IMG/VR virus record: IMGVR_UViG_3300042691_029887
Location: 10,845-74,844 of that record
Reading direction: 5' to 3' (one strand)
DNA length: 64,000 nucleotides
DNA from: a virus
Lineage: Duplodnaviria; Heunggongvirae; Uroviricota; Caudoviricetes
How positions within the stretch are numbered: position 1 is the first letter of the stretch; each line of letters opens with the position of its first letter. The position numbers and the translations under genes were made by a program. Below, piece after piece: positions 44,303 through 63,348 of the stretch. The notes beneath the pieces are model-generated. The model made no database searches. It worked only from the letters and a program-made list of their open reading frames with translations, and was not told the origin of the DNA.

Positions 44303-44695
44303 TTAACCTCGTCTCATTCTACTAATTTCAATTGCTTCATCATCACTAAACACTGGAACTGCATTACTTTTATGCATGGTAGCAATTCCTTTGACTTTAG
44401 TTCCTGTATAAACTTTGGCAGGAGCCAAAGTAGCGTTGCCTAAACCACTGTCCAAACTTTTAATGTGGGCAGTAGTGTTACGGCCTTCTGGTATCCTTAG
44501 ATTATACTTAGTAGATACCAATGTGTCAAGTTTAGTTTTTTTAGTAGATTTTGGAACTTCATATTTTTTGAGCAAGTCTTGCCAACTTTCCTGTAACTCA
44601 CGAGACTTGCGAGCTTGTTCTGCGTTACGAAATTTGCGTTTAGTTTTTTGTTTGCCTGTAGTGCTAAGCCACGGGCCTTCCAAATGCATACTCAT
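44303..44695 (-). CDS. hypothetical basic protein
   Basis: 130 aa. Confidence 0.4.
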   Translation of the reverse strand: MSMHLEGPWLSTTGKQKTKRKFRNAEQARKSRELQESWQDLLKKYEVPKSTKKTKLDTLVSTKYNLRIPEGRNTTAHIKSLDSGLGNATLAPAKVYTGTKVKGIATMHKSNAVPVFSDDEAIEISRMRRG

Positions 44696-45272: not shown

Positions 45273-45301
45273 TTGACAAAAGGCAATTGCCTAAGTATAA
45301 T
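45273..45301 (+). promoter_or_regulatory. consensus sigma70-type promoter TTGACA-N17-TATAAT driving the plus-strand radical-SAM operon
   Basis: TTGACA at 45273-45278, 17-nt spacer, TATAAT at 45296-45301; lies in the divergent intergenic region. Confidence 0.75.
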
Positions 45302-45326
45302 AACTATTATTTTACTAGGAGACATC

Positions 45327-45641
45327 GTGTCCGAATTTTTGGAAGGAATAATTTTTGGAATTTTCTTTTGGATAGTTGGAGTTAATTTACTTAGGTATTG
45401 GATTCTATCTAAGATAGAAAATGATCCAGAAATTCAAAAAATGGTAAATCAAAAAATTAAAGAACTTGAATTAGTGGAACTTGTTGTAGAGAAACATCAA
45501 GATACATTATACTGTTATAAAAAAGAAAATGATGAGTTTGTTGCTCAAGGCAAAACCTTAGAAGACATTTTGGAAATCTGCAGGAAAAAATTTCCAAAAG
45601 ATTCTTTTAGAATTATCAAAGAAGAAAAAATTGAAACTTGA
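45327..45641 (+). CDS. small membrane protein (first gene of the operon; GTG start)
   Basis: RBS AGGAG 5 nt before GTG at 45327; the ORF-track start at 45273 coincides with the -35 box and is therefore too early. Confidence 0.5.
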   Translation: MSEFLEGIIFGIFFWIVGVNLLRYWILSKIENDPEIQKMVNQKIKELELVELVVEKHQDTLYCYKKENDEFVAQGKTLEDILEICRKKFPKDSFRIIKEEKIET

Positions 45642-45653
45642 TAAAGGGAGATT

Positions 45654-46541
45654 ATGAGAAGTTTAGTTATTGGTATGGGTATAGGACAATTATACAAATC
45701 TGTACTTGAGGGCATGGGGCATGAAGTTTTGACTTTAGATACTGATCCAACAAAGTCTACAGACTTTAAGGATATTAGAGATGCCAGTCTTCGTTTAAAT
45801 CATTTTAATACCGTACATATATGTACTCCGAATTTCACACATAAAGAGATCGCAGAAGCTATAGCTCCTTCATCAAATATAATTTTTGTTGAAAAGCCTG
45901 GTTTTAGAAACAGCATCGAATGGCAAGATTTTGTAAAATACAGACCATTAACTCATATAATGATGGTAAAAAATAATCAGTGGAGATCTAATATCTCTGA
46001 TATGATAAGACTAAAAGAGCAAGCCTTGGTCATAGAAATACGCTGGCACAATAAAGACCGTGTTCCTAATCCTGGAACTTGGTTTACTACCAAGGAGTTA
46101 GCTTTTGGCGGTGTTAGTAGAGACCTTATGCCACATCTTTTGAGCTTGTTTATGGTCATGGAGCCAAACTATCAACAGGCTGTAAAAATGAGATATTTTT
46201 CCGAACAAAACTGGATATTAGATGATGTAAAAAATACTGATTATGGCATAGTTAATCCCAACGGCACGTATGATGTTGATGATCATTGTAGAATAGAGTA
46301 TGCTATAGATGATAAGATTTGGATACTGGATGCTAATTGGCGAACTCTAAAAGAAGATGATAGGGCTATCATTTTTACTATGAAAGATGGAACTACCAAA
46401 AGAATTGAATTAGGCCTGTGCCCAGAGGAAGCATATAAAAATATGATTAACGATACATTGTTAAGTATGCGAGAAAATATTTTTTGGAAAAAACAACACA
46501 CACAAGATTTGTGGATACATGAGACTATCGAAAAACTATGA
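45654..46541 (+). CDS. NAD(P)-binding oxidoreductase (Gfo/Idh/MocA-like)
   Basis: 295 aa; N-terminal Rossmann G-x-G-x-x-G (VIGMGIGQ) and EKP motif (FVEKPG). Confidence 0.55.
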   Translation: MRSLVIGMGIGQLYKSVLEGMGHEVLTLDTDPTKSTDFKDIRDASLRLNHFNTVHICTPNFTHKEIAEAIAPSSNIIFVEKPGFRNSIEWQDFVKYRPLTHIMMVKNNQWRSNISDMIRLKEQALVIEIRWHNKDRVPNPGTWFTTKELAFGGVSRDLMPHLLSLFMVMEPNYQQAVKMRYFSEQNWILDDVKNTDYGIVNPNGTYDVDDHCRIEYAIDDKIWILDANWRTLKEDDRAIIFTMKDGTTKRIELGLCPEEAYKNMINDTLLSMRENIFWKKQHTQDLWIHETIEKL

Positions 46542-47443
46542 AAGTTAAACTACTTAGAACTTACGGCAATGGTAAATTTGTAGAAGAAGATTGGGTTAAA
46601 CCAGAGCCTAGTGATAACGAAATTGAAGTCAAAGCTCTGATGACTGGTATATGTCGCAGTGACATAGATATGATGACCGGTAAATTTCCTACTTTGCCAG
46701 CACATATGAATGGTCACGAAGGATTAGGAATGGTAACCAAAGTAGGAAAGAATGTTTTAAATACTTGCTTTGGTGATATTGTGGCCACAAGAGGCGAGCC
46801 TGCTTATGCTGATTATTACAATGTTCGAGATAAAGAATTTGTAGTAGTTCCTACAATTGATCCTAAATACATTCTAGAGCCTGTGGCTTGCGGTGTAAAT
46901 CTTGTTAAACAGAATATTGATTTAATTAAGAGCAAAAGTCACGGTCGCTGCCTAATTATTGGCAGCGGGTTTCTGGCCTGGGTAGCTTACCATACTATTA
47001 AATTAGAATATATTAAATTCGAAACATTAGAAGTATGGGGTAATAGTAATAAAGAACTTTGGAATAAAGAAGGTGTATTAGTCAGTGAACCTACTCATGA
47101 TCAATATGATGTGATTATTGACATACGTGAACACGACTTAGTTCTGAAAAGAAATTTACTAGCACCTCTAGGACTTTGGGTCATTGCTGCCGAAAAAGAA
47201 CCAGTAGTAACTACATTTGGTCAACTACTTTGGAATGCTAATACTATTGTTATGCCTAGTCCAAGACACCCAAAATTTTATGATTCCATGTGTGATGCAA
47301 AGATATGGGTGTCAACAGGAAGTTTAAAAGTTGATAACTTTTGGACTAAATCATATGATAGGAATACTGAATGGGAAAAGGCTTTTGAAGATGGATTGAA
47401 TAGGCCTGATGGTTATAGTCGAGGATTTATTGTTTGGAAATGA
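46538..47443 (+). CDS. zinc-type medium-chain alcohol/threonine dehydrogenase family protein
   Basis: 301 aa; catalytic Zn motif GICRSD...H-E-G-x-G, Rossmann IIGSGFLA. Confidence 0.6.
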   Translation: MKVKLLRTYGNGKFVEEDWVKPEPSDNEIEVKALMTGICRSDIDMMTGKFPTLPAHMNGHEGLGMVTKVGKNVLNTCFGDIVATRGEPAYADYYNVRDKEFVVVPTIDPKYILEPVACGVNLVKQNIDLIKSKSHGRCLIIGSGFLAWVAYHTIKLEYIKFETLEVWGNSNKELWNKEGVLVSEPTHDQYDVIIDIREHDLVLKRNLLAPLGLWVIAAEKEPVVTTFGQLLWNANTIVMPSPRHPKFYDSMCDAKIWVSTGSLKVDNFWTKSYDRNTEWEKAFEDGLNRPDGYSRGFIVWK

Positions 47444-47901
47444 ATCGAATACTTTATAAAATAGTCAAAGATGAAATTGTTTCTTTCGACAGATATATCT
47501 CAGGGCAATTACTAGCTCTGGATAGAAGTGTCCTATCTGGCTTTATATCTTGGAACGCTAAAGAGAAATTTTCCTACACAGACTGGGTACAAAAAATAAA
47601 TTCTTTTACTGTAGTAAAAGTAGAAGGATTGGAAGATAATAAAAACATTTGTAAATATTTTAGAAAATTTAAAATCAAAGATATACATTTGTTTAATAGC
47701 ATCAAAACTGACTATAGTTTTGGATGGCATCACGATACTGTAAACGTTTACTTGTATGTCCTAAAAGGAAAGAAACGTGTTAGTATAAAAAATAAAACAG
47801 TTGTGTTAAATGCCGGACAAGGAATCCTTATTCCAAAAGGGAATAAACATCGTGTGTTTAACTACAAAAATACATGGGCTTTGAGTATTGGGTTAAAATG
47901 A
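47434..47901 (+). CDS. cupin / JmjC-like Fe(II) oxygenase-fold protein
   Basis: 155 aa; HxD...H arrangement (GWHHDTVNVYLYVLKG ... NKHRV). Confidence 0.45.
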   Translation: MEMNRILYKIVKDEIVSFDRYISGQLLALDRSVLSGFISWNAKEKFSYTDWVQKINSFTVVKVEGLEDNKNICKYFRKFKIKDIHLFNSIKTDYSFGWHHDTVNVYLYVLKGKKRVSIKNKTVVLNAGQGILIPKGNKHRVFNYKNTWALSIGLK

Positions 47902-48950
47902 AAGAATTAATGATTTATCTCAAAACTACAGAAACTTGTAATTTGAACTGCAAGCATTGTTTTACCAATGGAACCAATGGAGCAAAGATATATTGGGATC
48001 ACATTAAAGTAACAAAATGGTTACAGGAATTTAGCAAAATCACTAATAATTCATCACATGTACATTTAGAATTTCATGGCGGTGAACCCTTCCTAGCAGA
48101 TATAAAATCTTTGCAATATGTATATGATAATTGTTTTGATCTTTGGGCAAGTCAGAGCTGGGGGATCACTACAAATTTAGTTTTCAAACTAGATCAAGAA
48201 AAAATAGATTTTATACAAGGGCCTTTAGGAAATAGAATTGGCACTAGTTGGGATCCTGATATTAGATTTTCTAATCCAAAGCAGTATGATCTTTGGAGGA
48301 AAAATATTGATACATTAATTTCTTTAGGGGTTGATATCAAATTGTTTATTAGTGTTACCAAAGGCACAGTTAACATGGAACCTATCGACTTACTAGAATG
48401 GGTCAGAGATTTAGGAATTAAAGAGTTAGCTCTGGAAAGACTTACTATGAATGGCTCTGCTCTAGAGAATCTAGATATCTTTCCGACTAATTTAGAACAA
48501 GATCAGTGGTTCTTAAAAATGCATCATCAAATTTTAGAAAATGATGCAAGAGATTGGTTTTCTAATGAATTTATGGAGACAATTTATTCCAAGTTTGAGC
48601 AAGGAATAACTTCAGAAGGCACGTTCTGTAGAGATTGCGAAGAAAAATTATTCACTATCAATGCGGATGGATCTATTGCTGGTTGTCCTAATAGTGCTCC
48701 TGAGGATAAGTACGCACATATTGATGACAATATTCAAGATATTTTTATCAATGAAAAGCGACTTCACATTATGGCCTGTGAAAAATCAAGGGATCCCAGG
48801 TGCTACGAATGTCCAGTTTTTGAATACTGTGGTGGAGATTGTCACCAACTAGAATGGCAAGATAATATCTGTGGAGCCCCCAAAAGTCTAATGACATTGC
48901 TCAGCGGAAAAAATAAATATATCAAAGTGATTAATTTAAAGGAAATTTAA
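47898..48950 (+). CDS. radical SAM enzyme with C-terminal SPASM/twitch-like Cys cluster (rSAM-1)
   Basis: CNLNCKHC (Cx3Cx2C) near the N-terminus; C-terminal CRDCEEK...CPNS...CEKSRDPRCYECPVFEYCGGDC. Confidence 0.75.
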   Translation: MKELMIYLKTTETCNLNCKHCFTNGTNGAKIYWDHIKVTKWLQEFSKITNNSSHVHLEFHGGEPFLADIKSLQYVYDNCFDLWASQSWGITTNLVFKLDQEKIDFIQGPLGNRIGTSWDPDIRFSNPKQYDLWRKNIDTLISLGVDIKLFISVTKGTVNMEPIDLLEWVRDLGIKELALERLTMNGSALENLDIFPTNLEQDQWFLKMHHQILENDARDWFSNEFMETIYSKFEQGITSEGTFCRDCEEKLFTINADGSIAGCPNSAPEDKYAHIDDNIQDIFINEKRLHIMACEKSRDPRCYECPVFEYCGGDCHQLEWQDNICGAPKSLMTLLSGKNKYIKVINLKEI

Positions 48951-48951
48951 T

Positions 48952-49551
48952 ATGGTAAGAGCAACTAGCTTAACGGATCCGATTAGTGGGTCAAATATAA
49001 CCTACAGATTCAACTCAATCGTCATTAGTTCAGTAAACGCTGGTATTACCTTTGGTACTAACAATAAACCATTCAGCGAAGCTCCTAACAGTTTTTTTGG
49101 CGGGACTACGTCAGGGTACAATGATTTGACATCAGTACTCCCAGTAGGCAATGAAATAAATGCCACAGAGCTGATAGATACTATGGTAATACTGACGCAA
49201 GCATTTACCAATGTTAGAAATGCACAGTTTAAATTGAATCTCACTTCCAGCGGTTCCGCTCCTTATAATGTATCCCAAGGACCTAGAACTGGAAGTCCAG
49301 GGATCATTGAAAATGTCACTGGTAAATCTATTTTAAGTGGCGGTTATATACAAAGTGGAGTTATTTCTATTGACTCTGGCGGCGTTTCTGAAGGGCTACT
49401 AATAACAAAAACATCTATTAACAGTGATTTGTTAGCAGCTTGTAAAGACGAGTATATTTCTGCTGCCGGGAACACGGCTATAATGCCTACAGTGAATGTC
49501 TGCCATGCCAGCTGTCATAGTAGTTGTCATAATTCAAGAAGTAGACGATGA
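48952..49551 (+). CDS. Gly/Ser/Thr/Asn-rich protein with C-terminal Cys/His repeat CHASCHSSCHNSRSRR (candidate modification substrate)
   Basis: 199 aa; starts 2 nt after the rSAM-1 stop; low-complexity beta-rich body; tail VNVCHASCHSSCHNSRSRR. Confidence 0.6.
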   Translation: MVRATSLTDPISGSNITYRFNSIVISSVNAGITFGTNNKPFSEAPNSFFGGTTSGYNDLTSVLPVGNEINATELIDTMVILTQAFTNVRNAQFKLNLTSSGSAPYNVSQGPRTGSPGIIENVTGKSILSGGYIQSGVISIDSGGVSEGLLITKTSINSDLLAACKDEYISAAGNTAIMPTVNVCHASCHSSCHNSRSRR

Positions 49552-50237
49552 TAAAGAAATTATTGAACACAGAAAAAATAATTAGTGAAACAATAGAAAA
49601 TACTCCTTGGCAATACAAAATAATCGATAATATCTTAGAAGAAAGTTTCTTCTTAAAATTAAAGAATTCAGTAGAAAAATTATCTCAAATTCAAAAAGAT
49701 GAAGATTTTTATTCTGATGGAATATGGCCCAATGAGTTTGAATCTTTCAATATTAATAAAGAACTATATGATTCAGTAGTACAATGTCAAAGTGAATTTT
49801 TATCTATCAAAAATGAGTTGTTCTCACAATTTGATTTCTATTTGCGATCAGAATTAGGATATTTTGGGATACCTAAAATTAATTATTCTATGAACAATTT
49901 AGATAGTGCTATCCATGACGAGGGTAAGACAAAATCTCTGGCATTGATCATTTATCTAAGTCCAGAAAAAACATTGGGAACAAGATTGTATGAACAGCAA
50001 TCTTCCGATTCATTAATAAAAGAAGTTGACTGGAAACCTAATAGAGGATTCCTAATGTGTAGTCAACCAGGAGTAACCTGGCATAGTTATAAAAACAATG
50101 GGTCTCCTAGATATACTCTTAATTTATACTGCGAAAAAATGGAAGGTTTAGAAAGTGTACGATCCAATTCTACTGTAGACAGATATGCTTGGTTCTTAAA
50201 TAACATGAACGATTTATCACTAGTCACATACGGTTAA
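49548..50237 (+). CDS. 2OG-Fe(II) oxygenase-like protein, paralog 1 of 3
   Basis: 229 aa; IHDEGKTKSLALIIYLSPEKTLGTRLY...WKPNRGFLMCSQPGVTWHSY shared with 53525..54217 and 54204..54965. Confidence 0.45.
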   Translation: MIKKLLNTEKIISETIENTPWQYKIIDNILEESFFLKLKNSVEKLSQIQKDEDFYSDGIWPNEFESFNINKELYDSVVQCQSEFLSIKNELFSQFDFYLRSELGYFGIPKINYSMNNLDSAIHDEGKTKSLALIIYLSPEKTLGTRLYEQQSSDSLIKEVDWKPNRGFLMCSQPGVTWHSYKNNGSPRYTLNLYCEKMEGLESVRSNSTVDRYAWFLNNMNDLSLVTYG

Positions 50238-50241
50238 AATT

Positions 50242-50943
50242 ATGAAAATTATAAAAACTATTGCACCCATCCCTATCGATGAATTAAAACAATTTTTCGT
50301 AGACAAAGATATAAAATTTGTAATTGATTATAAAAATAGTAAATTACAAGGAAGCAAACTTCTTATATATCTAAGTAATTTAGACATTCCCTGTGATATC
50401 GACATTGACGATGATCAAAATGCTGCATTTGAATTGTTAACTGAATATCTAAACAGTCACTTTTTAGTAAGCATTGAGCTCTTAGAAAAACTTGCTTTAG
50501 AAGCAGTATTATGTTACAAAAAGATATTAGTGAATCCTAATTTTGATAAATTTGTTGAAGATAATTTAGAAATTTTAGAAAGATGGTCTGATATTTTAAA
50601 CAGTTTAGCTCTTTATAATATCTCTACAGTATCAATACCTGAACTGAAAAAACAACTTAATCAATTTGAAGTAAACAATGATGATTCATCTAAAGGAATA
50701 AATTTTGTGAATCTTCTGAAACATGAAGTTTTTTATAATTTCTTTTCTTCTTTTGATAAGAGTAAATTAAAATATTATTCCAACTTCTTTGAAAACTCTG
50801 TTTTCAAAGGAAAAAATCTCTATCATTATTGGGCTAATGAAAACAACACTATGTTTATTTTAACATGGTCTATAGCAAATCCTAACATAGATCTGGATAA
50901 GTTTGATTCAATTTTTGAAACCATTCGTCAGAAAACTCAGTAG
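50242..50943 (+). CDS. hypothetical protein
   Basis: 233 aa. Confidence 0.45.
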   Translation: MKIIKTIAPIPIDELKQFFVDKDIKFVIDYKNSKLQGSKLLIYLSNLDIPCDIDIDDDQNAAFELLTEYLNSHFLVSIELLEKLALEAVLCYKKILVNPNFDKFVEDNLEILERWSDILNSLALYNISTVSIPELKKQLNQFEVNNDDSSKGINFVNLLKHEVFYNFFSSFDKSKLKYYSNFFENSVFKGKNLYHYWANENNTMFILTWSIANPNIDLDKFDSIFETIRQKTQ

Positions 50944-51547
50944 TTTTGTAATCACTAAACCAAGGACCTCCTAAGGTCCAATGAACTATTTTAGCATTTT
51001 TATTTGGACTATTAATTCCTACTAAATGATTCCACTCTGGTGGAATTTCTCCGATATCGCTATCATTTAACCATTTAAATTGATGTAGTTCTAAACCACT
51101 AGCGGTATTAATATAATCTAGAGTAAGGTTTCTACATTTATTATTGTTGAAGAGAATTAAACTACTCCAATTTTTTCTATCATAATAAGTCTGATAGTTG
51201 CCATTAAACTTTACATTATCTTTATATTGACATTTGTGTTTTACTACCATAGCAGAATACTGATCGTCATTTAAAGAAAATAATTCAAATATATCTGCTC
51301 TACACAACATATCAGAATCCATATATAAACTCCAACCTGAATAATCTGATAGATAAGGAACTAGCCACCTAGTAAATGCAGAATCAGTTGTTTGCAGTTT
51401 ATCTCTTTTTCTATATAATATATCATTGAGATCAGTTAGATTTAATAATGATATCTGTAAGTCTTTGGACGAGTTATTAATTATAGAATCAATCTGTATT
51501 CTAATATTTTTTTCGAATTGTTTATCATATCCTATAAAAATTTTCAT
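50882..51547 (-). CDS. GT-A fold glycosyltransferase (GT8-like, DxD motif)
   Basis: 221 aa; FTRWLVPYL...GWSLYMDSDML resembles the GT8 RL.IP.LL...YLDADII block. Confidence 0.5.
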   Translation of the reverse strand: MKIFIGYDKQFEKNIRIQIDSIINNSSKDLQISLLNLTDLNDILYRKRDKLQTTDSAFTRWLVPYLSDYSGWSLYMDSDMLCRADIFELFSLNDDQYSAMVVKHKCQYKDNVKFNGNYQTYYDRKNWSSLILFNNNKCRNLTLDYINTASGLELHQFKWLNDSDIGEIPPEWNHLVGINSPNKNAKIVHWTLGGPWFSDYKTTEFSDEWFQKLNQTYPDLC

Positions 51548-52359
51548 ATCTTAATCCATATATCATTTATCTTTTTAAATTTTATCCCTTTTATCTCACA
51601 TTCTTGGTTATTAAATTTTATACATTCACTTGGTAATAATTTTTTATTAATTTTCTTCCAATGCATTGAGTCATGAAAAGTTAAAAATGGTATTTCAAAT
51701 TTATCTAATATAGTTAAAAATTTTTCTTGTGCGAACAAAAATGGTCTATTCGTTGGAGAATTGGAGGATACTATATCACCGCAGTCTGTTTTATCTGTTA
51801 AATTTAAATACATGAATCTTGGTAATTTAGTTATTTTAAATAATGACAATAGTTCAATTACGCCATTTATTTCTTTGCATTTATAATCTAAAATAAACGG
51901 ATTAGCATCGATTCTTTTATCCCATACATATAGACCTTTTAATTCTTTCTGTGGAACCAAGTATGTTGAAACTAAAAATCTTGTTGTACCTGGATGAAAA
52001 GAATAAGAATTGTTAGTTTGTAATAATTGAAATAAAGATGTTAACCCATTATTTCTAATATCTTCTATTAACCAAGACAATTTAAGAAAAAGTTTGAGAT
52101 CCTGTAAATCATCATTCCATTGATCAATGTCAGTATCTAATACAAATTTATCAAGCTCAATTAAATCTTTATTTTCTAAATTTGATATTAAGATACTTAC
52201 AGACTTGATAACGTCAAAATCGATATAAGAAAAGGCAATTTCATTTGGTATTTCAAAATATATAAGTTTTGATTTGCCTTTATTTTTAAAAAATTTTCTT
52301 ATACTAATTATGTTTTTATAAAATACATTGATTTTTAATATTAATAAATCAATATTCAT
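51544..52359 (-). CDS. hypothetical protein
   Basis: 271 aa. Confidence 0.4.
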   Translation of the reverse strand: MNIDLLILKINVFYKNIISIRKFFKNKGKSKLIYFEIPNEIAFSYIDFDVIKSVSILISNLENKDLIELDKFVLDTDIDQWNDDLQDLKLFLKLSWLIEDIRNNGLTSLFQLLQTNNSYSFHPGTTRFLVSTYLVPQKELKGLYVWDKRIDANPFILDYKCKEINGVIELLSLFKITKLPRFMYLNLTDKTDCGDIVSSNSPTNRPFLFAQEKFLTILDKFEIPFLTFHDSMHWKKINKKLLPSECIKFNNQECEIKGIKFKKINDIWIKI

Positions 52360-52365
52360 GCAATT

Positions 52366-53478: not shown

Positions 53479-53524
53479 TGGGGTCTCCGTATCCTATTGT
53501 AGTGTATTTATTACTTGAGATTCG

Positions 53525-54217
53525 TCAGTATTTGTTTGTAGTTAAGTGGTTTTTTCCGATTTGGTCCAGTAACCATAACATGCTCTCAAAATTATCGTTT
53601 TCTGCTGACTTTGTCATGGATTTCTCCATACATTCGATTTTTTCGCAGAAAATGTTCAAAGTTACTCTGGGTTCCCCATTAGTATTTTTCCATGTGTGCC
53701 ACGTTTCGTCATTGTTCCCATTTGGGCAAATTATTAAAGCTCTGTTTGGTTTCCATTCTATTTCTTTATGAAAATCAGATTCTTGTTGCCCTGTATATAA
53801 TCTAGTTCCTCGCTCAATTTCGGGTTCCAAATATATTACAATCAGCAAAACTTTATGACTGCTTTCTGAATGTATAGGATACATAAAATTTTTACCGCTT
53901 ACACCAAATTTTGGTAAAGAATAATAGCCGTGTAAAGATTTATTAGTAGTCGAGAATCCTGCTAGTATATCATCAATATTGTCTAAAATTTGATCTGTAA
54001 AATTGATTATACTGTCGACACAGTCCTGCTTTACCCCTAAAGTTAATGCTTCATTAATCCAGATGGGATTAGTTTTGCCATCGATGGTATATTTGGTCAG
54101 AAACTTCGCTGCTTCCTGAACTTTTTTAAAAACTTGGTCAGGCAATATATCGTCTACTACTTTATGTTCCCAAGGGTCGAGCAATATCGGTGAATTTATA
54201 ATTTTATCTATCGTCAT
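53525..54217 (-). CDS. 2OG-Fe(II) oxygenase-like protein, paralog 2 of 3
   Basis: 230 aa; IHSESSHKVLLIVIYLEPEIERGTRLY...WKPNRALIICP...TWHTW. Confidence 0.45.
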   Translation of the reverse strand: MTIDKIINSPILLDPWEHKVVDDILPDQVFKKVQEAAKFLTKYTIDGKTNPIWINEALTLGVKQDCVDSIINFTDQILDNIDDILAGFSTTNKSLHGYYSLPKFGVSGKNFMYPIHSESSHKVLLIVIYLEPEIERGTRLYTGQQESDFHKEIEWKPNRALIICPNGNNDETWHTWKNTNGEPRVTLNIFCEKIECMEKSMTKSAENDNFESMLWLLDQIGKNHLTTNKY

Positions 54218-54965
54218 AAATTGATAGAACCTTTCCCTCTAAAAATTGATTGTAAAACCAATTGATTTTTTCTATTCCTAAATTATTAATGTATTGCATA
54301 TTTTCCATTTTTTCATAATAAAAATTTAATGTTAGTCTAGATTGATGATCAGAATGAAAACTGTGCCAAGTTATACCTGGCTGACTGCACATTATAAATG
54401 CTCTATTAGGCTTCCATTCGACTTCTTTTACGAACGAATTATAATTTTCTTCAGTATAAAGCCTAGTTCCAATAGTTTTTTCAGGAGAAAGATACATAAC
54501 CATGGCTATGGTTTTGTTATTGCCTTCATCATGTATTGTCCCATCAACATTTGGACCAATGAAATTATATCTAGGAATACTAAAATATCCTATTTTACTA
54601 TTCATGGCATTTTGATATCTAGCCAAAACTTTGTTATGATTTTGTAAAAATTGTAAATTCAAATCCATAATTAAATTTATAGTGTCATTAGGAACACCAT
54701 ATTTGGCAGCATCGTGCATCCATATACCATTGGGATCACGTGGCTCTTGAGCGGCTGCTTCTGCTAAAATTTTTCCTCCTTCTAATATTTTATCATAAGA
54801 TTCTTTGGTTAAAATATTATCAACTAACTGATATTGCCAGGGGTTAGTAATGATAGGGGATTCTAATATGTTTTCTATATTAAGCATTGAATTTTTTTTT
54901 GGGCTTAGAAAATTATTTATGATAAATTTTAAGATAAATATGCTGTTAATGGATATTATATACAA
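54204..54965 (-). CDS. 2OG-Fe(II) oxygenase-like protein, paralog 3 of 3
   Basis: 253 aa; IHDEGNNKTIAMVMYLSPEKTIGTRLY...WKPNRAFIMCSQPGITWHSF. Confidence 0.45.
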   Translation of the reverse strand: MYIISINSIFILKFIINNFLSPKKNSMLNIENILESPIITNPWQYQLVDNILTKESYDKILEGGKILAEAAAQEPRDPNGIWMHDAAKYGVPNDTINLIMDLNLQFLQNHNKVLARYQNAMNSKIGYFSIPRYNFIGPNVDGTIHDEGNNKTIAMVMYLSPEKTIGTRLYTEENYNSFVKEVEWKPNRAFIMCSQPGITWHSFHSDHQSRLTLNFYYEKMENMQYINNLGIEKINWFYNQFLEGKVLSIYDDR

Positions 54966-56029
54966 TGAAAGATGAAGAGTTATACAATGTATTGATAGGC
55001 AATCAAAAACAAAATGAACAAGGTGAACTCATTGTAATTCTTTTTGAATTTTGTAATTTATCTTGTCAAGCCTGTTATCAAGACCACAGTAGTATGGCAG
55101 GGGTTGATAGCGTCCAAGAAAAATTTGATATTATTGCTCACGCATTAGATGTATTAAAAGGTAGGGGAAAAACTTCTGTAGCAGTAAACATTATGGGCGG
55201 CGAGCTCTTTGCGGACGAACTACCTGATACTATTTTCGATGATTATACTATCTTAGTGAATAGATTACGTGATTATAGTGAAAAAATAAATCTTCCTTCA
55301 AAATTTTCAGTTCCATCTAATATGATATGGACTAAAAAAGATAGAGTTAAAAAATTCTTGAATGATGCAATGGTAAGGTTAAACGCCAGTTATGATCCAG
55401 CTGGACGTTTTAATCCTAAAACTTTATCTATGTTTATCGATAATGTTAAAGAATTTAAACCTTACATCAATCAAATCGGTATAGTAATGACGAGGCCGAG
55501 TATTAAAAAGTTCATGAATTATTCTGCTAATCATTTTGATTTTTTATACGAAAATTTTGAAATAAATTTTGATCATTATACGCACAGTCAAAGAGCTAGT
55601 GTTGACCCAGAATTATTAATGCCTAAAGATACAGAACTTAGAGATTTTTACAAATTTATGATTGACCATTATCCTAATTGTTATCCATTTTGTGAAACAA
55701 TGGACAGCGGATCTCAACCAATGTTCTGTATGAGAACAATGTATGTCTTTCCTGACTCTACTTTTGGTTCGTGTGGAAGTGTTGAAAAATTAATTAATCC
55801 TTTATCAAAAATAGAAGATAAAAAAGTCATTCGTATAATCAATACCACTGACAGTCCCTTAGAAAAAACTATCGAAGCAAAATGGTATAAAGAATATGAT
55901 TGTTTAAATTGTGATCATCTTCAAAGATGCTCTATGAGTTGTTTTTTAAATAATCATTTTTATAATACTAGAACACAGGAAGAATGTTGGCTCAAAGAAG
56001 TTTATCAATATGTTGACAGTAAAAAATGA
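54965..56029 (+). CDS. radical SAM enzyme (rSAM-2)
   Basis: 354 aa; CNLSCQAC Cx3Cx2C motif; additional C-terminal Cys (CLNCDHLQRCSMSC). Confidence 0.7.
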   Translation: MKDEELYNVLIGNQKQNEQGELIVILFEFCNLSCQACYQDHSSMAGVDSVQEKFDIIAHALDVLKGRGKTSVAVNIMGGELFADELPDTIFDDYTILVNRLRDYSEKINLPSKFSVPSNMIWTKKDRVKKFLNDAMVRLNASYDPAGRFNPKTLSMFIDNVKEFKPYINQIGIVMTRPSIKKFMNYSANHFDFLYENFEINFDHYTHSQRASVDPELLMPKDTELRDFYKFMIDHYPNCYPFCETMDSGSQPMFCMRTMYVFPDSTFGSCGSVEKLINPLSKIEDKKVIRIINTTDSPLEKTIEAKWYKEYDCLNCDHLQRCSMSCFLNNHFYNTRTQEECWLKEVYQYVDSKK

Positions 56030-57645
56030 TAAAAATAGCGTTTATAAATCCGCCTCACGCTGATTGGATAACACCAAATTTAGCCACTTGGTTTTATATG
56101 AAGAGTCATTACGATAGAGTTGGCAAATATAAAAATCAAGTTCAATGGTTAACTCCTCCTTATCGATATAATCAGTATCAGAGTACTGAAGAAATATATG
56201 AGGAAATAAAAGAAGCTGATATTATAATTTTTAGTTCTTATTTTTGGAATTACGATATCTGTGATGAGATCGCAGCATTAGTAAAAACTAAAGATAAAGA
56301 TAAAATAAATTTAATAGGCGGACCGCATATTGGAATAATTGATGGATCATTTGATAAAAGAAAACATCTTTATGATTATTATTGTCAGCCAACTAAACCA
56401 GGTGAAGTGTTTATAGAAGATTTTATAAATTTGTTTATAGAATCTAAATCAAAACCAGATCCAGAATTAGTATCCTGGGAAATAAGATGTGTTTCTGGAA
56501 GAAAGCATGATTTTTCAGGCATTGCTATATACGAAGAAAATTTTAATATCCTAAAAGAAATATGTGATTATGCAAATCAATATGATTTAGAAAAATTTTC
56601 AGTAATAGAAACGACAAGAGGATGTCCATATCAGTGTACTTTCTGCGAGTGGGGTGGCGGGATAGGCACGAAGGTAATAAAACAAGAATTAGAAATAGTT
56701 AAACGAGACTTATTGGCTTTAAAAAAAGCAGGATATAAAAATGTTTTTTTAACTGATGCTAACTTTGGAATGTTTGAGGATAGAGATTTAGAAATTTTTA
56801 AATTTGCTTGGGAAAACGATATAAAACTAACTGACCTTAGCACAGTGAAAGTAAAAAATTTAGAAAGAAGAATAAGACTTATTGATGCTTGTTTTGAAAT
56901 CATGGGCAAAAATAAATCAGAATCTGGATACCCTACTCTAAGTATACAGACTTCAAGCGACGAAGCTATAAAGATCGCCAAACGAACCGACTTATCGTTT
57001 GATGATAAAATCAAATTATCAGAGCATATTTTTAAAAGATTTAAAGAAGGATATATTACTACTCCTACATTAGAATTAATTATGGGAATGCCTGGTTCCA
57101 CAATAGATGATTTTTATAAAGAATTTGATATGTTGTATAATTTTCAATCTTGGAATAGTTATAGACATGACTATATGTTTTTGCCTGATGCAGAAATAAG
57201 TCGCCCGGAATATTTAAAAAAGTACGGTATAGAACTTGTAGAAGTTTATAGTGATTTAATAGATGAAGATTCAGTTGATAACTTTAACAGTTTTTATGGT
57301 AAAAGAAAAAGTTATTTTAAAACAATCTCACAATGTTTTTCTTTCACTAATGACGAGATATGTGAGATGTTTTTTATGAATCAAGCAGGAAATTGGATTT
57401 TAAAAGAAGTGTATTATTCAGGTTTTGAAAGTCTATTTTCTCCTTCAGAATTTACAAAAAAAAGTTATCAAATATTAAAAAAGTTAGACGGCTTCTCAGA
57501 AATATACAGCGACATAAAAGAAATTTACAACGTAGATAGTGAACCAAAAAATATTAAAAGAATTTTAAATGGAAAACGAAATGAAGTTATAGTAAATTTT
57601 TTAAAAAATAATAAAATATTTTTAACGAATGAAATGTTTAGATAA
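56026..57645 (+). CDS. B12-binding-domain radical SAM enzyme (class B-like; rSAM-3)
   Basis: 539 aa; N-terminal Rossmann-like cobalamin-binding region; TTRGCPYQCTFCEWG radical-SAM core. Confidence 0.7.
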   Translation: MIKIAFINPPHADWITPNLATWFYMKSHYDRVGKYKNQVQWLTPPYRYNQYQSTEEIYEEIKEADIIIFSSYFWNYDICDEIAALVKTKDKDKINLIGGPHIGIIDGSFDKRKHLYDYYCQPTKPGEVFIEDFINLFIESKSKPDPELVSWEIRCVSGRKHDFSGIAIYEENFNILKEICDYANQYDLEKFSVIETTRGCPYQCTFCEWGGGIGTKVIKQELEIVKRDLLALKKAGYKNVFLTDANFGMFEDRDLEIFKFAWENDIKLTDLSTVKVKNLERRIRLIDACFEIMGKNKSESGYPTLSIQTSSDEAIKIAKRTDLSFDDKIKLSEHIFKRFKEGYITTPTLELIMGMPGSTIDDFYKEFDMLYNFQSWNSYRHDYMFLPDAEISRPEYLKKYGIELVEVYSDLIDEDSVDNFNSFYGKRKSYFKTISQCFSFTNDEICEMFFMNQAGNWILKEVYYSGFESLFSPSEFTKKSYQILKKLDGFSEIYSDIKEIYNVDSEPKNIKRILNGKRNEVIVNFLKNNKIFLTNEMFR

Positions 57646-58715
57646 TGGAACTAATAATTAAGCCTACTGAGCTCTGTAATTTTAAATGTACATTTTGTTC
57701 AAGTACATATATCACTGAGGAAAAATCTAAAACATTAGATTTAGAATATATTTTTAAATTTCTAAAAAGATTTCCTGAAACAAACTCTATTATTGTAAAT
57801 GGCGGTGATCCCTTAATGGTTCCAACAGAATATTATTGGGAAATAATTAAGCACTTAGATGAAAATAATTTACCAGCTAATTTAAGTTTCACTAGCAATC
57901 TTTGGCCGTTCTATAAAAATCCAGATAAATGGACAGAGTTGTTTAATCATCCTAGGATGGGAGTCACTACAAGTTTTCAATACGGTGGCGGAAGATTAAA
58001 AGGTGATCTTACTGAATTTAGTGAAGAAGATTTTTGGGCTGTCAGTAATATGATGTTAGATAAAGTAGGATACCGACCAGACTTTATTGCAGTTATCACG
58101 GAAGAAAATGAACATTTAGCTATCAACAACGTAGAGCTTGCTAAACGTATGGGTGTTGAATGTAAACTCAATTATGCATTTAGTAGCGGTCCGCCTATTA
58201 AATTTAAAAATATTACCATGGGACAGGAAGGGCGTCCATATATGTTGGCCAAGATATACGAAATATATGTTCGTATCTGGGAACTGGGACTTGCTGAATG
58301 GGAATACAACACCAAACAAATGATTGGAAGATTAAAAAATAAAAGTACCACATGTCCGCAAAATAGAAAATGTGACGAAGGAATTAGAACTCTTCAACCC
58401 AGTGGAGATTATTATAGTTGCGGAGCATTTGGAGATGACAGAGTTTATTCTATCAATTTTCAAGAAGAGATGTCAGGTAAAAAAATATTTCCCATTCGAT
58501 ATCAACCAGAGTTACAAAGTTTAAAACAAAGTTGTTATACTTGTCCTATGTTTGAAATTTGCAATGGTTGTCGTAAAACTATTAAGGATCTCAAAGATCA
58601 TAATATGGTAGAAACACATTGTTTTAAAATGAAACAATTAGCTCCTAAAATTATAGAAGCCAATGGACTCAATAAAATATTAACTCCCACTGAGTACGTT
58701 CGAGAATATGCATGA
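57645..58715 (+). CDS. radical SAM enzyme with SPASM-like C-terminal Cys cluster (rSAM-4)
   Basis: 356 aa; CNFKCTFC; C-terminal CPQNRKCDEG...CGAFGDD...CYTCPMFEICNGC. Confidence 0.72.
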   Translation: MELIIKPTELCNFKCTFCSSTYITEEKSKTLDLEYIFKFLKRFPETNSIIVNGGDPLMVPTEYYWEIIKHLDENNLPANLSFTSNLWPFYKNPDKWTELFNHPRMGVTTSFQYGGGRLKGDLTEFSEEDFWAVSNMMLDKVGYRPDFIAVITEENEHLAINNVELAKRMGVECKLNYAFSSGPPIKFKNITMGQEGRPYMLAKIYEIYVRIWELGLAEWEYNTKQMIGRLKNKSTTCPQNRKCDEGIRTLQPSGDYYSCGAFGDDRVYSINFQEEMSGKKIFPIRYQPELQSLKQSCYTCPMFEICNGCRKTIKDLKDHNMVETHCFKMKQLAPKIIEANGLNKILTPTEYVREYA

Positions 58716-59620
58716 TAGTTTCTATTAATCCAACCTACTACTGCAATTTTAGATGTGATTTTTGTTATCTAACAGAACAACAACTAAGTGACCGAACATT
58801 ATTACCGTTAACTGTTTTAGAATCACGAATTAAGGAAATACAAGAAATTGATGAAATACAAATGATAGATTTGTATGGAGGTGAAGTAGGATTACTTCCA
58901 GAAACATATGTCAATGAACTTTGTTCTTTATTAAAGAATAATGGAATAGATGATATTAACATCATAACTAATTTGAGTATGGTAAATCAAGTTATAAGAA
59001 ACCCAGACTTTTATCTTACTGTAAGTTATGACTTTGATTGTAGGGAACAGAGTGAGCGTGTTTGGACTAACATGGCATTGTTAGATAGAGAATTTTCGAT
59101 ATTAATTTTAGCCAGTGATTGTTTGATTAAGAAAGATATTGATTTAATGATTAATCAATTAAATTTGTTAGGAAATCTTCAATCTGTAGAAATAAAACCA
59201 TATAGTACTAATCAAGCTAATTGTCATAATGTAAGTAATCTAGATTTTGAAAATTTTGTTAAAGGCTGGATACAGAGTACTATTAAGAAAAAATTTGAGT
59301 TTGTAAATGAAACCAATATTAATAAAACGTTAAATTATAAAAGAAATGCCTTTAGTAATGACCATGTTTATATAACCCCAAGCGGTGAATTTGCTGTACT
59401 GGAATTTGATCTTAACGACAATGAATATTTTAAATTAGTTAATTCTTATAAAGAATATAAAGACTGGGCAGATAATGAACCGTTAAAAAATGTTAGCAAT
59501 GTCTGCAAGTCTTGTACTTATTATGGTAGATGCTTGACAGAGCATTACAGATATGTTAAAAATTTAGATTACAGTTGTAATGGATTTAAAGGATTGATAG
59601 ATTGGTATGCAACTAGATAA
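58712..59620 (+). CDS. radical SAM enzyme (rSAM-5)
   Basis: 302 aa; CNFRCDFC; C-terminal CKSCTYYGRC. Confidence 0.68.
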   Translation: MIVSINPTYYCNFRCDFCYLTEQQLSDRTLLPLTVLESRIKEIQEIDEIQMIDLYGGEVGLLPETYVNELCSLLKNNGIDDINIITNLSMVNQVIRNPDFYLTVSYDFDCREQSERVWTNMALLDREFSILILASDCLIKKDIDLMINQLNLLGNLQSVEIKPYSTNQANCHNVSNLDFENFVKGWIQSTIKKKFEFVNETNINKTLNYKRNAFSNDHVYITPSGEFAVLEFDLNDNEYFKLVNSYKEYKDWADNEPLKNVSNVCKSCTYYGRCLTEHYRYVKNLDYSCNGFKGLIDWYATR

Positions 59621-60023
59621 CTTTTTCATTGATGGATATGTTTTATTAGAAGAATCAAATCTTCATGAAAAAACAGATATGCTTCAGTATCTTGAAGAAA
59701 AATACCTATCAATATTATTTCCAAAATGGAAATTAATAGGGTGTGAATACTCTGAATCAGTACTACCTGAAGACAGAATTACCTTTTGGCATAACGATTC
59801 TAAATTTGGTATGAATGTAACATTTTTATATTACATTGACGAAATGTCGCCAGAAGTAGGCGGATCAATATCTATTAGAAATGGATTCGATGAAATAAAA
59901 ATATATCCTAAATCTGGAACATTAATTTTGATGAGTCAAAAACCAAATATGCAACACAAGGCAGAATATTGCTCAATTCTTAGAAGAATGTATAATATAG
60001 ATTATTATATAGACGGTTACTAA
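59607..60023 (+). CDS. 2OG-Fe(II) oxygenase / cupin-like protein
   Basis: 138 aa; HxD (WHNDSK) and distal His in a beta-rich core. Confidence 0.4.
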   Translation: MQLDNFFIDGYVLLEESNLHEKTDMLQYLEEKYLSILFPKWKLIGCEYSESVLPEDRITFWHNDSKFGMNVTFLYYIDEMSPEVGGSISIRNGFDEIKIYPKSGTLILMSQKPNMQHKAEYCSILRRMYNIDYYIDGY

Positions 60024-60026
60024 AAT

Positions 60027-60431
60027 ATGAAAGAATATAAGATACGTCAGGAGATATATCATAGATTAAACAAGATCTATGATGATGACTTAAAAAATTT
60101 CCAAATAGAAATAACTGAAGACGTTGTCAAGGATGCTGTTAGGTATTTTACAACTAGAGATATAGGTTGGATTTATCCGGCAAAAAGTTATATGGTAGCA
60201 ATATGTTATGCTAAATGGCTATCTGAAGAATTTGGCGGTAGACCATTAGAATACTTAGATGATCCTGGATTACTCTATCATAACGATGATTACTTTAAAC
60301 ACTATAGCAGCGATCCAAAAACCTATGTAAAAATTTTAGAAAGTATAGGTGGGTGGAATTTTGATGAAAGCATGGGTCTTGTTCCTGATGTTAAAAAATA
60401 TTTTCTACTGGAATTTGGTGTCGAAGAATGA
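60027..60431 (+). CDS. hypothetical protein ending in the FGVEE junction motif
   Basis: 134 aa; C-terminus LEFGVEE* overlapping the next start ATGAAT, the same junction as in the 9.8-11.5 kb small-gene array. Confidence 0.45.
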   Translation: MKEYKIRQEIYHRLNKIYDDDLKNFQIEITEDVVKDAVRYFTTRDIGWIYPAKSYMVAICYAKWLSEEFGGRPLEYLDDPGLLYHNDDYFKHYSSDPKTYVKILESIGGWNFDESMGLVPDVKKYFLLEFGVEE

Positions 60432-61012
60432 ATTATGGATTAAATCATTGTTGGGCCACTGCTGTTAGGCTATCTAAAATAAAGAACACATCACTTTTAG
60501 AAGATCTTACTCAGGAAATATTAACCAGTTCTTACATGAAAAATCCGCCTAGCGATTTCCAAGAATTTGATATTTTAAAAGAAACCAGCAATATTTCTAG
60601 ACAATTTTTAAAAGACGAAGTAACCCTAGCTTTTCAAGAATACTTAAATGAAGTATTGGGAGTTGATTTAAAACAGTATCATGGATATGAATTGAGATCT
60701 TGGTTAGCCGGAACTGGAAATGGATACATGATACCAACACATAATCATAGCGGTGCTTCTCTTAGCGCAGTATTTTACTTACTTACAGATGATACTGGTA
60801 AAGGCGGTGAACTTGAGTTGATTGATCCAAGATCCAATGCTAATCGAGGTTATGACAGAAACTTTAAAAAACTTTTTGAAAAGCAAGTATTGACACCCAA
60901 AACTGGAGATGTTATAGTTTTTCCAAGTTTTGTGTATCACTACACTCTACCCTTTACTGGAAGCATAAGATTAGCAATACCTGTGGATCTGTTGCTTGAA
61001 TGTAAAGATTAG
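60428..61012 (+). CDS. 2OG-Fe(II) oxygenase family protein
   Basis: 194 aa; MIPTHNHSGASLSAVFYL...GGELELIDPR...GDVIVFPSFVYHYTLP typical of the small cyanophage-type 2OG-Fe(II) oxygenases. Confidence 0.55.
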   Translation: MNYGLNHCWATAVRLSKIKNTSLLEDLTQEILTSSYMKNPPSDFQEFDILKETSNISRQFLKDEVTLAFQEYLNEVLGVDLKQYHGYELRSWLAGTGNGYMIPTHNHSGASLSAVFYLLTDDTGKGGELELIDPRSNANRGYDRNFKKLFEKQVLTPKTGDVIVFPSFVYHYTLPFTGSIRLAIPVDLLLECKD

Positions 61013-61908: not shown

Positions 61909-61928
61909 AAAATAATGTGTCAAAACTA

Positions 61929-63236: not shown

Positions 63237-63251
63237 TCTATAAAGTTTCAT

Positions 63252-63341: not shown

Positions 63342-63348
63342 AATTTAT

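Follow-up and report, generated by a model that had tools for sequence, protein, structure and literature searches.

What would a tailed phage do with five radical S-adenosylmethionine (SAM) enzymes and several putative oxygenases encoded side by side? The question is raised by positions 45273-61012 of a 64,000-nucleotide stretch of viral DNA (positions 10,845 to 74,844 of the IMG/VR record IMGVR_UViG_3300042691_029887, Caudoviricetes), the whole of which is called here the window. A first-pass annotation, made from the sequence alone, had taken this region for a candidate hypermodification system or one resembling those of ribosomally synthesised peptides with post-translational modifications (RiPPs). 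In the reading developed here, the region represents an enlarged version of a conserved cassette which matures a fibre-associated virion protein, and we put the probability of this reading at about 0.5. The candidate substrate is the product of 48952-49551, referred to below as the tail protein.

A near-invariant Cys-His terminus

The tail protein terminates in VCHASCHSSCHNSRSRR, that is, (C-H-x-x)3-R-x-R-R. Its last 16 residues (CHASCHSSCHNSRSRR) are nearly identical to those of gp170 of phage Atu_ph07 (CHSSCHASCHNSRSRR) and ORF071 of phage RSF1 (CHSSCHSSCHGSRGRR), while the bodies of the three proteins differ. Relatives are numerous, a homology search giving 69 clusters and a profile search 709 representatives at 50 % identity. 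Among 234 members retrieved by homology alone, 219 end in CHxxCHxxCHxxRxRR and 228 in RR; the fourth position of the repeat is Ser in 85-95 % of cases and otherwise mainly Asn or Ala. A strictly invariant Ser was considered and rejected as an artefact of the degenerate DNA pattern used to find the motif, which permitted Ser, Thr, Cys, Trp and Arg at this position, but not the Asn and Ala that appear in the protein set, and which recovered only Ser codons. Both Ser and both Arg codon families are used among the 135 distinct DNA versions of the tail, and because these synonymous families vary, the constraint on the tail acts on the amino acids.

This tail is found attached to N-terminal bodies of several sizes (approximately 126, 138, 180-200, 257 and 296 residues), and the bodies of about 126 residues have no visible resemblance to those of about 190. 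For the window protein AlphaFold2 predicts a compact α/β domain and a low-confidence tail (predicted local distance difference test 85, predicted template modelling score 0.80). This model has no structural match in the PDB, and the protein matches no NCBIfam model. Foldseek against BFVD does find gp170 (E = 4.9e-7), together with other uncharacterised phage proteins, and as judged from the models the window protein and gp170 share a fold.

It had been suggested that the tail protein might be the partner of rSAM1, the radical-SAM enzyme encoded in front of it. Both the near-invariant tail and the gene position favour this suggestion: the gene is always immediately behind that of the SPASM enzyme, the two being 1 nt apart or overlapping.

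Distribution and gene order of the cassette

A tblastn search with rSAM1 found proteins 46-48 % identical to it in Atu_ph07, Phosso, RSF1, RSL2, FLC4/6/8, SURPRISE13, RsoM3USA and pPa_SNUABM_DT01, and in these cultured jumbo phages the neighbourhoods of the rSAM1 relatives have the same layout. The order cupin, rSAM1, tail protein, P233, P370, rSAM2, rSAM4, rSAM5, P134 recurs in dozens of IMG/VR loci as well as in Atu_ph07 and RSF1/RSL2; altogether, over 100 viral contigs and also MAG contigs binned as Bdellovibrionota preserve it (MAG, metagenome-assembled genome). When the open reading frames (ORFs) of 130 loci were labelled by their best window homologue, the full canonical order was cupin, rSAM1, tail protein, P233, P370, rSAM2, (cobalamin-type radical SAM), (small 2OG), rSAM4, (2OG), rSAM5, P134, (2OG), where 2OG stands for proteins resembling 2-oxoglutarate-dependent oxygenases and parentheses mark optional genes. 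The tail motif itself, sought at ORF ends with the degenerate DNA pattern, was found on at least 119 IMG/VR contigs and on 22 contigs of MAGs in GTDB.

A second architecture has two tandem tail proteins of about 126 residues with the same Cys-His tail. In the loci of this type with enough flanking sequence (L054, L069, L112 and L128), the cupin, rSAM1, rSAM4, rSAM5, P134 and rSAM2 are found nearby, but neither P233 nor P370. The universal core, being what the two architectures have in common, therefore consists of the tail protein, the cupin, the four radical-SAM enzymes rSAM1, 2, 4 and 5, and P134.

Compared with this core the window cassette is enlarged, and in it P370 and four accessory genes are turned round with respect to the canonical order. 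The membrane protein, the Gfo-like protein, the zinc-dependent alcohol-dehydrogenase-like protein (Zn-ADH), three 2OG-like paralogues and the GT8-like protein are shared with the relative L153, whose tail protein is 67 % identical, and the cobalamin-type enzyme is an accessory that recurs in 19 loci. Identical copies of the window cassette are present on four metagenome contigs (L001-L004).

Bdellovibrionota-binned MAGs account for 12 of the 22 genome matches to the tail motif. On L155, a 1.29-Mb Halobacteriovoraceae contig, the whole cassette is adjacent to the gene of a protein that combines a pilin-like N-terminus with a Peptidase_S74 chaperone domain; a serine dehydratase gene also flanks the cassette, and no capsid genes were found within 20 kb of the cassette. 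The Bdellovibrionota-binned copies may come from phages assigned to the wrong bin, from remnants of prophages or from fibre systems that truly belong to the bacteria.

The first-pass annotation knew of no described phage module of this type. The core proves to be widespread, and in cultured jumbo phages it is annotated merely as cupin, radical-SAM and 2OG genes; in RSF1-like phages these are listed as genes of unknown role (PMC8066314, PMC11898562). In marine T4-like genomes the co-occurrence of many radical-SAM genes with iron-sulfur (Fe-S) assembly genes has been noted but left unexplained (PMC5332604). A search of the literature for phage radical-SAM, SPASM, RiPP and tail-fibre links gave gene lists only; neither a study of function nor any account of the tail motif was found. 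Among GenBank phages, the whole region gave no match by megablast, and neither did the cobalamin-type enzyme, an 842-residue ORF of the window, the tail protein or a 126-residue tail protein by tblastn; a search of IMG/VR with the cobalamin-type enzyme gave nothing.

It is worth adding that the tandem pair of about 126 residues is found in L012, L023, L028, L136, L141, L151 and approximately 25 other loci, usually with a fibre-like neighbour that bears a conserved C-terminal domain. This neighbour precedes the pair in L136, L141 and L151, where it is very large (about 1,700-2,000 residues).

The radical-SAM enzymes

All five radical-SAM candidates contain CX3CX2C, and by sequence all five are assigned to the superfamily. 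The gathering cut-off of PF04055 (29.5 bits) is passed by the cobalamin-type enzyme of 56026-57645 (43.3 bits), by rSAM4 (57645-58715, 36.7 bits) and by rSAM5 (58712-59620, 34.6 bits). rSAM1 (47874-48950) reaches 25.5 bits and passes Fer4_12, and rSAM2 (54965-56029) fails with 13.3 bits. Taking Pfam, NCBIfam and PHROG together, the support is strong for four of the proteins, with rSAM1 matching phrog_1802 at 3.9e-69, and indirect for rSAM2, through phrog_1802 (2.8e-30). The earlier count of five thus stands on the motif, with three of the five above the Pfam threshold.

The SPASM domain was sought both as a C-terminal seven-Cys region (CX2CX5CX3C) and with the model TIGR04085 (cut-off 27 bits). 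The full motif (CX2CX5CX2-3C) is present in rSAM1, rSAM2 and rSAM4, and part of it in rSAM5. rSAM1 scores 33.2 bits, in agreement with its earlier description as SPASM-like. That of rSAM4 is right as to the motif (CX2CX5CX2C), its score of 26.7 bits falling just short, and rSAM2 scores 17.8 bits with a full CX2CX5CX3C motif. On this basis SPASM domains are assigned to the set, and binding of auxiliary clusters is predicted from the motif.

rSAM1, 2, 4 and 5 find their counterparts on the bacterial contig L155 at E values of 1e-132 (the rSAM4 orthologue), 6e-98, 4e-87 and 3e-53, while the paralogues inside the window barely detect one another. Because the matches between window and contig are so much the stronger, we regard the four SPASM-type enzymes as old, anciently diverged orthogroups. 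The best NCBIfam neighbours of the radical-SAM set are PapB, DynA, anSME, HxsB/C and cyclophane synthases, and in sequence the enzymes look like peptide or protein maturases.

The fifth enzyme had been described as B12-binding. PF02310 stays below its cut-off (19.3 against 32.1 bits), but phmmer aligns the protein with TokK at 7.4e-22 over residues 55-405, spanning both domains, and with CysS at 6.5e-19, which points to homology with these cobalamin-dependent methylases. Membership of the KedN5 subfamily was rejected, the match (3.1e-28) scoring 98 against 700 bits.

Association with the virion and with fibre genes

Atu_ph07 gp170, a protein of 31.89 kDa, was identified among the virion proteins by electrospray ionisation tandem mass spectrometry, through 8 unique peptides that gave 35 % coverage (PMC6102473 Table S5). 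We recomputed this mass exactly, and gp170 ends in FCHSSCHASCHNSRSRR. The sample had been boiled in sodium dodecyl sulfate (SDS), and gp170 was detected in gel fragments 1-9, being most abundant in fragment 1; for reference, the 127-kDa gp20 peaks in fragment 1, proteins of 117-137 kDa in fragment 2 and proteins of 30-34 kDa in fragments 7-8 (PMC6102473). It is possible that gp170 exists as an SDS-resistant species of high mass. The neighbouring enzymes and the P233 homologue are not listed in the Atu_ph07 virion proteome, while the upstream proteins gp176 and gp177 are (PMC6102473).

Fibre-like proteins of 370-1085 residues flank the cassette in 79 loci, the tandem type included. They share with gp176 a C-terminal domain of about 130 residues (…SANYADLAEKY…GRVPVKV…), and in one of them collagen repeats occur together with a weak match to the Peptidase_G2 intramolecular chaperone. 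In several lineages baseplate genes (Phage-Gp8, DUF4815) are found immediately upstream of the cassette.

The proposed maturation

We infer from these observations that the enzymes act on the tail, and propose the following scheme. The substrate would be the exposed C-terminal tail, (C-H-x-S/N)3-R-x-R-R, of the protein of about 190 residues. rSAM1, 2, 4 and 5 would introduce radical cross-links into it, which could be thioethers from the three Cys and/or triceptide-type cyclophane links from His to a β-carbon, and the JmjC-like cupin and the 2OG oxygenases would hydroxylate side chains. The window lineage would have added a cobalamin-dependent C-methylase and three extra 2OG-like paralogues, and its GT8-like protein and two dehydrogenases could supply a sugar and attach it. 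As for P233, P370 and P134, these would be helper proteins that do not enter the virion. The matured protein would then become part of the particle close to a tail or baseplate fibre, as to which the residence of the Atu_ph07 homologue in virions is the evidence, and the Fe-S assembly genes of the phage could plausibly furnish clusters for the cassette enzymes.

The chemistry would be RiPP-like, probably cross-linking. The likely substrate is a folded, virion-bound protein of about 190 residues rather than a leader-core peptide that is cleaved and released. A RiPP in the strict sense arises from a precursor that has leader and core as well as a recognition element, and proteolysis releases the modified peptide; scans with Pfam, NCBIfam and PHROG found no protease or exporter in the cassette. 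We therefore speak of RiPP-like chemistry on a structural protein and not of a RiPP, since the substrate is folded, ends up in virions and is encoded in a cassette without a protease. The cassette is a variant of radical-SAM protein or peptide maturation in an unexpected setting, widespread and uncharacterised. A bolder version can be offered tentatively: in jumbo phages, and apparently in Bdellovibrionota, four radical-SAM/SPASM enzymes and oxygenases would cross-link the C-terminal end of a fibre-associated particle protein into a covalent Cys-His knot, by new post-translational chemistry on (C-H-x-S)3-R-x-R-R, yielding possibly an SDS-resistant linkage or a metal-binding adsorption tip. This would be the first radical-SAM maturation of a viral structural protein.

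Several observations weigh against a maturation of this kind. The enzymes are linked to the tail by adjacency and conservation only, and every radical-SAM match to a characterised family is far under the family cut-off, so the reaction chemistry is not readable from homology. The predicted structure of the tail protein, a compact domain, is no obvious fibre, and in the window no fibre gene with the conserved C-terminal domain is within reach of the cassette. The unusual gel position of gp170 was recorded in a single data set, where smearing over the slices affects many proteins, and the RSF1 homologue of the tail protein carries no virion-protein annotation. Finally, three Cys-His pairs would equally form a plain metal site without covalent modification.

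This last point leads to an explanation that we consider unlikely, although it has precedent. The tail would be an unmodified metal or cluster site on a structural protein, its three Cys and three His binding a metal, perhaps multiplied in an oligomer, and the enzymes would act elsewhere, for example on the adjacent fibre protein. Phage tail proteins with structural metal include T4 gp37, with His-bound iron, and lambda gpL, with a [4Fe-4S] cluster. Within the repeat only the Cys and His side chains are invariant, the fourth position accepting Ser, Asn and Ala; the genome has Fe-S assembly genes; and the commonest neighbour of the cassette is a fibre gene. However, a metal site leaves unexplained why four SPASM enzymes and a cupin are tied to the tail gene in more than 100 genomes, loci of scrambled order included. 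It would rarely require an invariant R-x-R-R terminus and an exact four-residue spacing, and the joining of the tail to differing bodies is more like a transferable substrate module.

The cassette could also be auxiliary metabolism, modifying a small molecule, a glycan or a nucleic acid (a sugar for the host surface or the virion, say, or a DNA or tRNA base) with the tail protein as an unrelated neighbour. Gfo/Idh/MocA-like, Zn-ADH-like and GT8-like proteins and a TokK/CysS-like methylase do typify sugar and natural-product tailoring, and radical-SAM enzymes act in phage thymidine hypermodification (PMC8989533). We nevertheless hold this improbable: the sugar-type genes are accessories, confined to this lineage and a few other loci, while the universal core consists of the tail protein, cupin, four SPASM enzymes and P134. 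Peptides and proteins are the main targets of such SPASM enzymes, and no nucleotide-handling gene (kinase, glycosylase or DNA-type transferase) was found in the cassette in the same three scans. Nothing points to nucleic-acid or glycan hypermodification. The multi-step radical and oxidative tailoring of a peptide, protein or glycan suggested at first pass has peptide or protein as its best-supported target. Less probable still is that the tail protein is a true precursor, its modified C-terminus being cleaved off as a cofactor, metallophore or toxin in the manner of pyrroloquinoline quinone (PQQ) or mycofactocin. The substrate motif is indeed C-terminal and encoded beside a SPASM enzyme, and the best NCBIfam match of the Zn-ADH is the mycofactocin-associated TIGR03989, over the N-terminal 70 residues only; mycofactocin clusters contain dehydrogenases and a glycosyltransferase, as are present here. 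Here, however, the dehydrogenases are outside the core, the scans found no protease or exporter, the bodies before the tail are folded and conserved, unlike leader peptides, and the Atu_ph07 homologue is found in virions at 35 % coverage. A queuosine, PQQ or mycofactocin operon was rejected, there being no matching families above cut-off.

If maturation of a fibre-associated virion protein is correct, radical-SAM peptide chemistry, known so far from bacteriocins, cofactors and a few enzymes, also builds virus particles. It would give a function to a family of at least about 700 protein clusters, whose 16-residue motif hardly varies, and a concrete reason for large phages to pair many radical-SAM genes with their own Fe-S assembly machinery. 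It would also indicate that phages and predatory bacteria have in common a so far unexplored factor in the assembly of fibres or the recognition of hosts. The core cassette is present in the cultured phages Atu_ph07, RSF1/RSL2, FLC6 and SURPRISE13, and substrate and enzymes are small, so the proposal is directly testable.

Comparison with known systems

The thioether maturases PapB (for ranthipeptides), CteB (for sactipeptides) and QhpD share with the cassette enzymes the CX3CX2C core and SPASM motif, and their genes likewise adjoin that of a substrate with regularly spaced Cys. Among NCBIfam models PapB (NF047865) comes nearest to rSAM1 (2.6e-17), and among solved structures CteB, a thioether synthase, does. 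QhpD cross-links the QhpC subunit, an example of such an enzyme maturing a protein that remains part of a complex. The scores against the PapB family (63.1 bits for rSAM1 and 25.9 for rSAM2) are nevertheless far below its cut-off of 340 and place neither enzyme in it. The cassette differs further in having four different SPASM paralogues for one 16-residue tail, in a substrate that is a phage virion protein, and in a repeat, C-H-x-S/N, without the Asp/Glu acceptor of PapB and QhpD substrates (a CX3D/E repeat for PapB).

The triceptide synthases HaaB, HtkB and YhhB offer another comparison. Such enzymes join His-C2 to the β-carbon of the residue at +2 in HAA, HNR and HTK motifs (PMC11499958), and the His-x-Ser/Asn/Ala of the cassette repeat fits their aromatic-X-X motif (PMC11499958). 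rSAM1, 4 and 5 weakly match FxsB, YhhB, XyeB, AmcB and GrrM (E values of 1e-5 to 1e-6), at 22-27 bits against cut-offs of 310-450, an order of magnitude lower, which puts them outside these families. In the cassette tail, moreover, an invariant Cys precedes every His and there is no leader peptide.

The HXS system (HxsA/HxsB/HxsC/HxsD) of Haft and Basu, itself uncharacterised (PMC9062424), resembles the cassette in pairing a repeated His-Xaa-Ser target with more than one radical-SAM maturase. rSAM1 matches HxsB (TIGR03978, 5e-9, 35.4 against 370 bits) and rSAM4 matches HxsC (TIGR03977, 2e-6, 26.8 against 268 bits), neither within the family, and the cassette differs by its four-residue, Cys-containing repeat, its phage and fibre context and a tail protein that no NCBIfam model matches. 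The anaerobic sulfatase-maturating enzyme anSME is a SPASM enzyme that modifies Cys or Ser of a full-length folded protein and not of a peptide. rSAM1 and rSAM4 match its family (TIGR03942) at about 1e-10, and the last cassette repeat, C-H-x-S-R, faintly resembles C-x-P-x-R. The cassette has no sulfatase, however, the Pro of the motif is absent, and 40 against 349 bits excludes membership.

Closest of all are the cassettes of RSF1/RSL2, FLC6, SURPRISE13 and Atu_ph07, with orthologous genes in the same order and the same tail-protein end. Compared with these the window lineage adds the cobalamin-type enzyme, three 2OG-like paralogues, the GT8-like protein, two dehydrogenases and the membrane protein, and its middle block is inverted.

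Other proteins of the cassette

Table 1. Features of the 45273-61012 region in order of position; cut-offs are those of Pfam.
Feature	Coordinates	Strand	Basis
Sigma-70 consensus promoter-like site, head of first plus-strand unit	45273..45301	+	12/12 match to TTGACA-17-TATAAT; consensus match only
Small predicted membrane protein, ~104 aa, lineage accessory	45327..45641	+	AGGAG then GTG; hydrophobic N-terminus
Gfo/Idh/MocA-like oxidoreductase, lineage accessory	45654..46541	+	PF01408 2.1e-4, PF22725 6.6e-4, both below cut-off
Zinc-dependent alcohol-dehydrogenase-like protein, lineage accessory	46538..47443	+	PF08240 ADH_N 1.9e-9 (passes, N-terminal domain); phrog_2640 3.9e-11
Cupin (JmjC-like), first conserved-core gene	47434..47901	+	Cupin_2 1.5e-9 (passes); JmjC_2 3e-4, slightly under cut-off
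rSAM1, radical-SAM enzyme with full SPASM motif, core	47874..48950	+	C22x3Cx2C; GSIAGC; CYECPVFEYCGGDC
Tail protein, 199 aa, proposed substrate	48952..49551	+	Conserved C-terminal tail CHASCHSSCHNSRSRR, encoded 49501-49548
2OG-oxygenase-like paralogue 1, HxE...H...R, lineage accessory	49548..50237	+	No Pfam match; conserved H123, E125, H179, R188
P233, conserved partner protein, core of ~190-aa architecture	50242..50943	+	Conserved gene position
GT8-like glycosyltransferase, accessory	50882..51547	-	PF01501 2.8e-4, 21.0 against 24.3 bits, below cut-off; phrog_28018 7e-44
271-aa protein, lineage accessory	51544..52359	-	No family match (Pfam, PHROG)
P370, conserved protein, core but inverted here	52366..53478	-	Conserved N-terminus MxHLFxKxYLxxD in alignment
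2OG-oxygenase-like paralogue 2	53525..54217	-	HxE...H...R kept
2OG-oxygenase-like paralogue 3, 227 aa from ATG 54887	54204..54887	-	PF13640 0.029, 15.8 bits, below 27
rSAM2, divergent radical-SAM/SPASM enzyme, core	54965..56029	+	C30x3Cx2C; CLNCDHLQRCSMSC; phrog_1802 2.8e-30; 70 loci
Cobalamin-dependent radical-SAM methyltransferase-like enzyme, 539 aa, recurrent accessory	56026..57645	+	PF04055 5.9e-11; 19 loci
rSAM4, radical-SAM/SPASM enzyme, core	57645..58715	+	C11x3Cx2C; GDYYSC; CYTCPMFEICNGC; phrog_1802 4.3e-61
rSAM5, radical-SAM enzyme with partial auxiliary-cluster motif, core	58712..59620	+	C11x3Cx2C and C265, C268, C274, C289; PF04055 2.6e-8
Small 2OG-oxygenase-like protein (P138), recurrent accessory	59607..60023	+	PF13640 7.6e-4, 20.8 against 27 bits, below cut-off; H62-N-D...H117; 28 loci
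P134, conserved small protein, core in both architectures	60027..60431	+	phrog_20737 6.7e-51; alignment; 27 loci including tandem-126 type
2OG-Fe(II) oxygenase, Oxy_5 type	60428..61012	+	PF13759 1.9e-13, 51 against 27 bits, passes; phrog_81 5.7e-20

Six proteins of the region are of cupin or 2OG type, with varying support. The first-pass annotation had counted five or more: Cupin_2 and 2OG-FeII_Oxy_5 pass their cut-offs, the remaining matches are weak, and P134, a candidate for the same class, was rejected as an oxygenase. The cupin gene is found upstream of rSAM1 in 66 loci. Three of the proteins had been called HxD...H paralogues; their paralogy holds (33-39 % mutual identity), and the motif is in fact HxE...H...R, whose H, E, H and R are invariant in all three. 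Hidden Markov models hardly touch them, and a profile search of PDB sequences gave no credible match. The start of paralogue 3 was set by the gene calls in L001-L004.

The same profile search gave no credible match for P233, none for P370, and for P134 matches to PPR proteins that contain no passing stretch and are not credible. P233 has no structural match either, and no recognisable RiPP recognition element. P370 homologues are found downstream of P233 and on the same strand in 60 loci.

The two remaining enzyme classes named at first pass, Gfo/Idh/MocA and GT8, both rest below their Pfam cut-offs, and for the Zn-ADH it is the N-terminal domain that passes. The GT8-like protein has a DSD motif within YMDSDML, and its gene is also present in L143, L147 and L155. 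The Gfo-like gene is kept in L153 and absent from the other loci; L153 also has a homologue of the membrane protein at the same position. The 271-residue protein was seen only in L001-L004, copies of the same phage, and L153 has an uncompared 228-residue gene at that position.

Gene layout and transcription units

The ORFs of the region are present at the coordinates first assigned to them, with overlaps of 1-28 nt inside the blocks. They had been read as one operon under a single promoter, a reading excluded by the strand layout, since the five genes of 50882-54887 run on the minus strand. The genes fall instead into three transcription units: eight plus-strand genes (approximately 45327 to 50943), five minus-strand genes (50882-54887) and seven plus-strand genes (54965-61012). 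Units 1 and 2 are convergent and overlap by 62 nt, and units 2 and 3 are divergent, with a 77-bp gap between them.

The promoter proposed at 45273-45301 is indeed a perfect 12/12 sigma-70 consensus. Across the whole sequence 100 promoter-like sites were found against 95 expected from shuffles, which is no excess. The TTG at 45273, given as a start in the ORF list, is the -35 hexamer of this site itself, and for the first ORF a start at GTG 45327, with AGGAG upstream, is more likely. A second perfect 12/12 site is found at 44501-44529 on the minus strand, pointing away from the first, and the outward-facing pair lies at the boundary between a minus-strand block and the cassette, which suggests early or middle promoters for the host RNA polymerase. 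The G+C content drops to 0.27-0.31 over 50001-60000, a stretch that covers the radical-SAM genes and the inverted accessory block; most of the window has 0.34-0.40.

Genome setting

The gene content of the window is that of a large tailed phage. An origin in a giant eukaryotic virus was rejected in view of homologues in Caudoviricetes, PHROG matches, tRNA arrays and an endolysin; the window encodes an endolysin-like hydrolase as well as a tail-fibre-like protein. The Fe-S assembly genes reported earlier are borne out by a minus-strand block at 145-3948 that encodes NifU/IscU, an IscA-type protein, an Fe/Mn superoxide dismutase, a class-V aminotransferase resembling cysteine desulfurase, a SufD-like protein and the SufC ATPase. 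It is plausible that this block supports the phage's numerous Fe-S enzymes.

The product of 6901-7980 (minus strand) matches tail-fibre and short-tail-fibre PHROGs over its C-terminal 50 residues or so. Its gene lies among metabolic genes, and the protein does not have the fibre C-terminal domain that accompanies the cassette elsewhere. Two large minus-strand ORFs, at 22528-25056 and 25730-27151 (842 and 473 residues), have no Pfam or PHROG match. At 4107-4463 a lone plus-strand gene within a minus-strand block encodes a small protein with calcium-binding motifs of EF-hand or dockerin type.

Host-like housekeeping genes are found at 4630-5784, 5966-6481, 7967-8566, 29262-31175, 32599-33678 and 37871-39091, the set comprising a UvdE endonuclease, a PTPS/QueD-like protein, ClpP, DnaK, a GMP reductase/IMPDH-family protein and ClpX. 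The DnaK is about 70 % identical to proteobacterial DnaK sequences in the phage collection. Eleven tRNA genes form two groups, at 16590-19940 and 61834-63789; an array of eight lies directly downstream of the cassette, and a tRNA-Ile with the anticodon TAT is among the genes.

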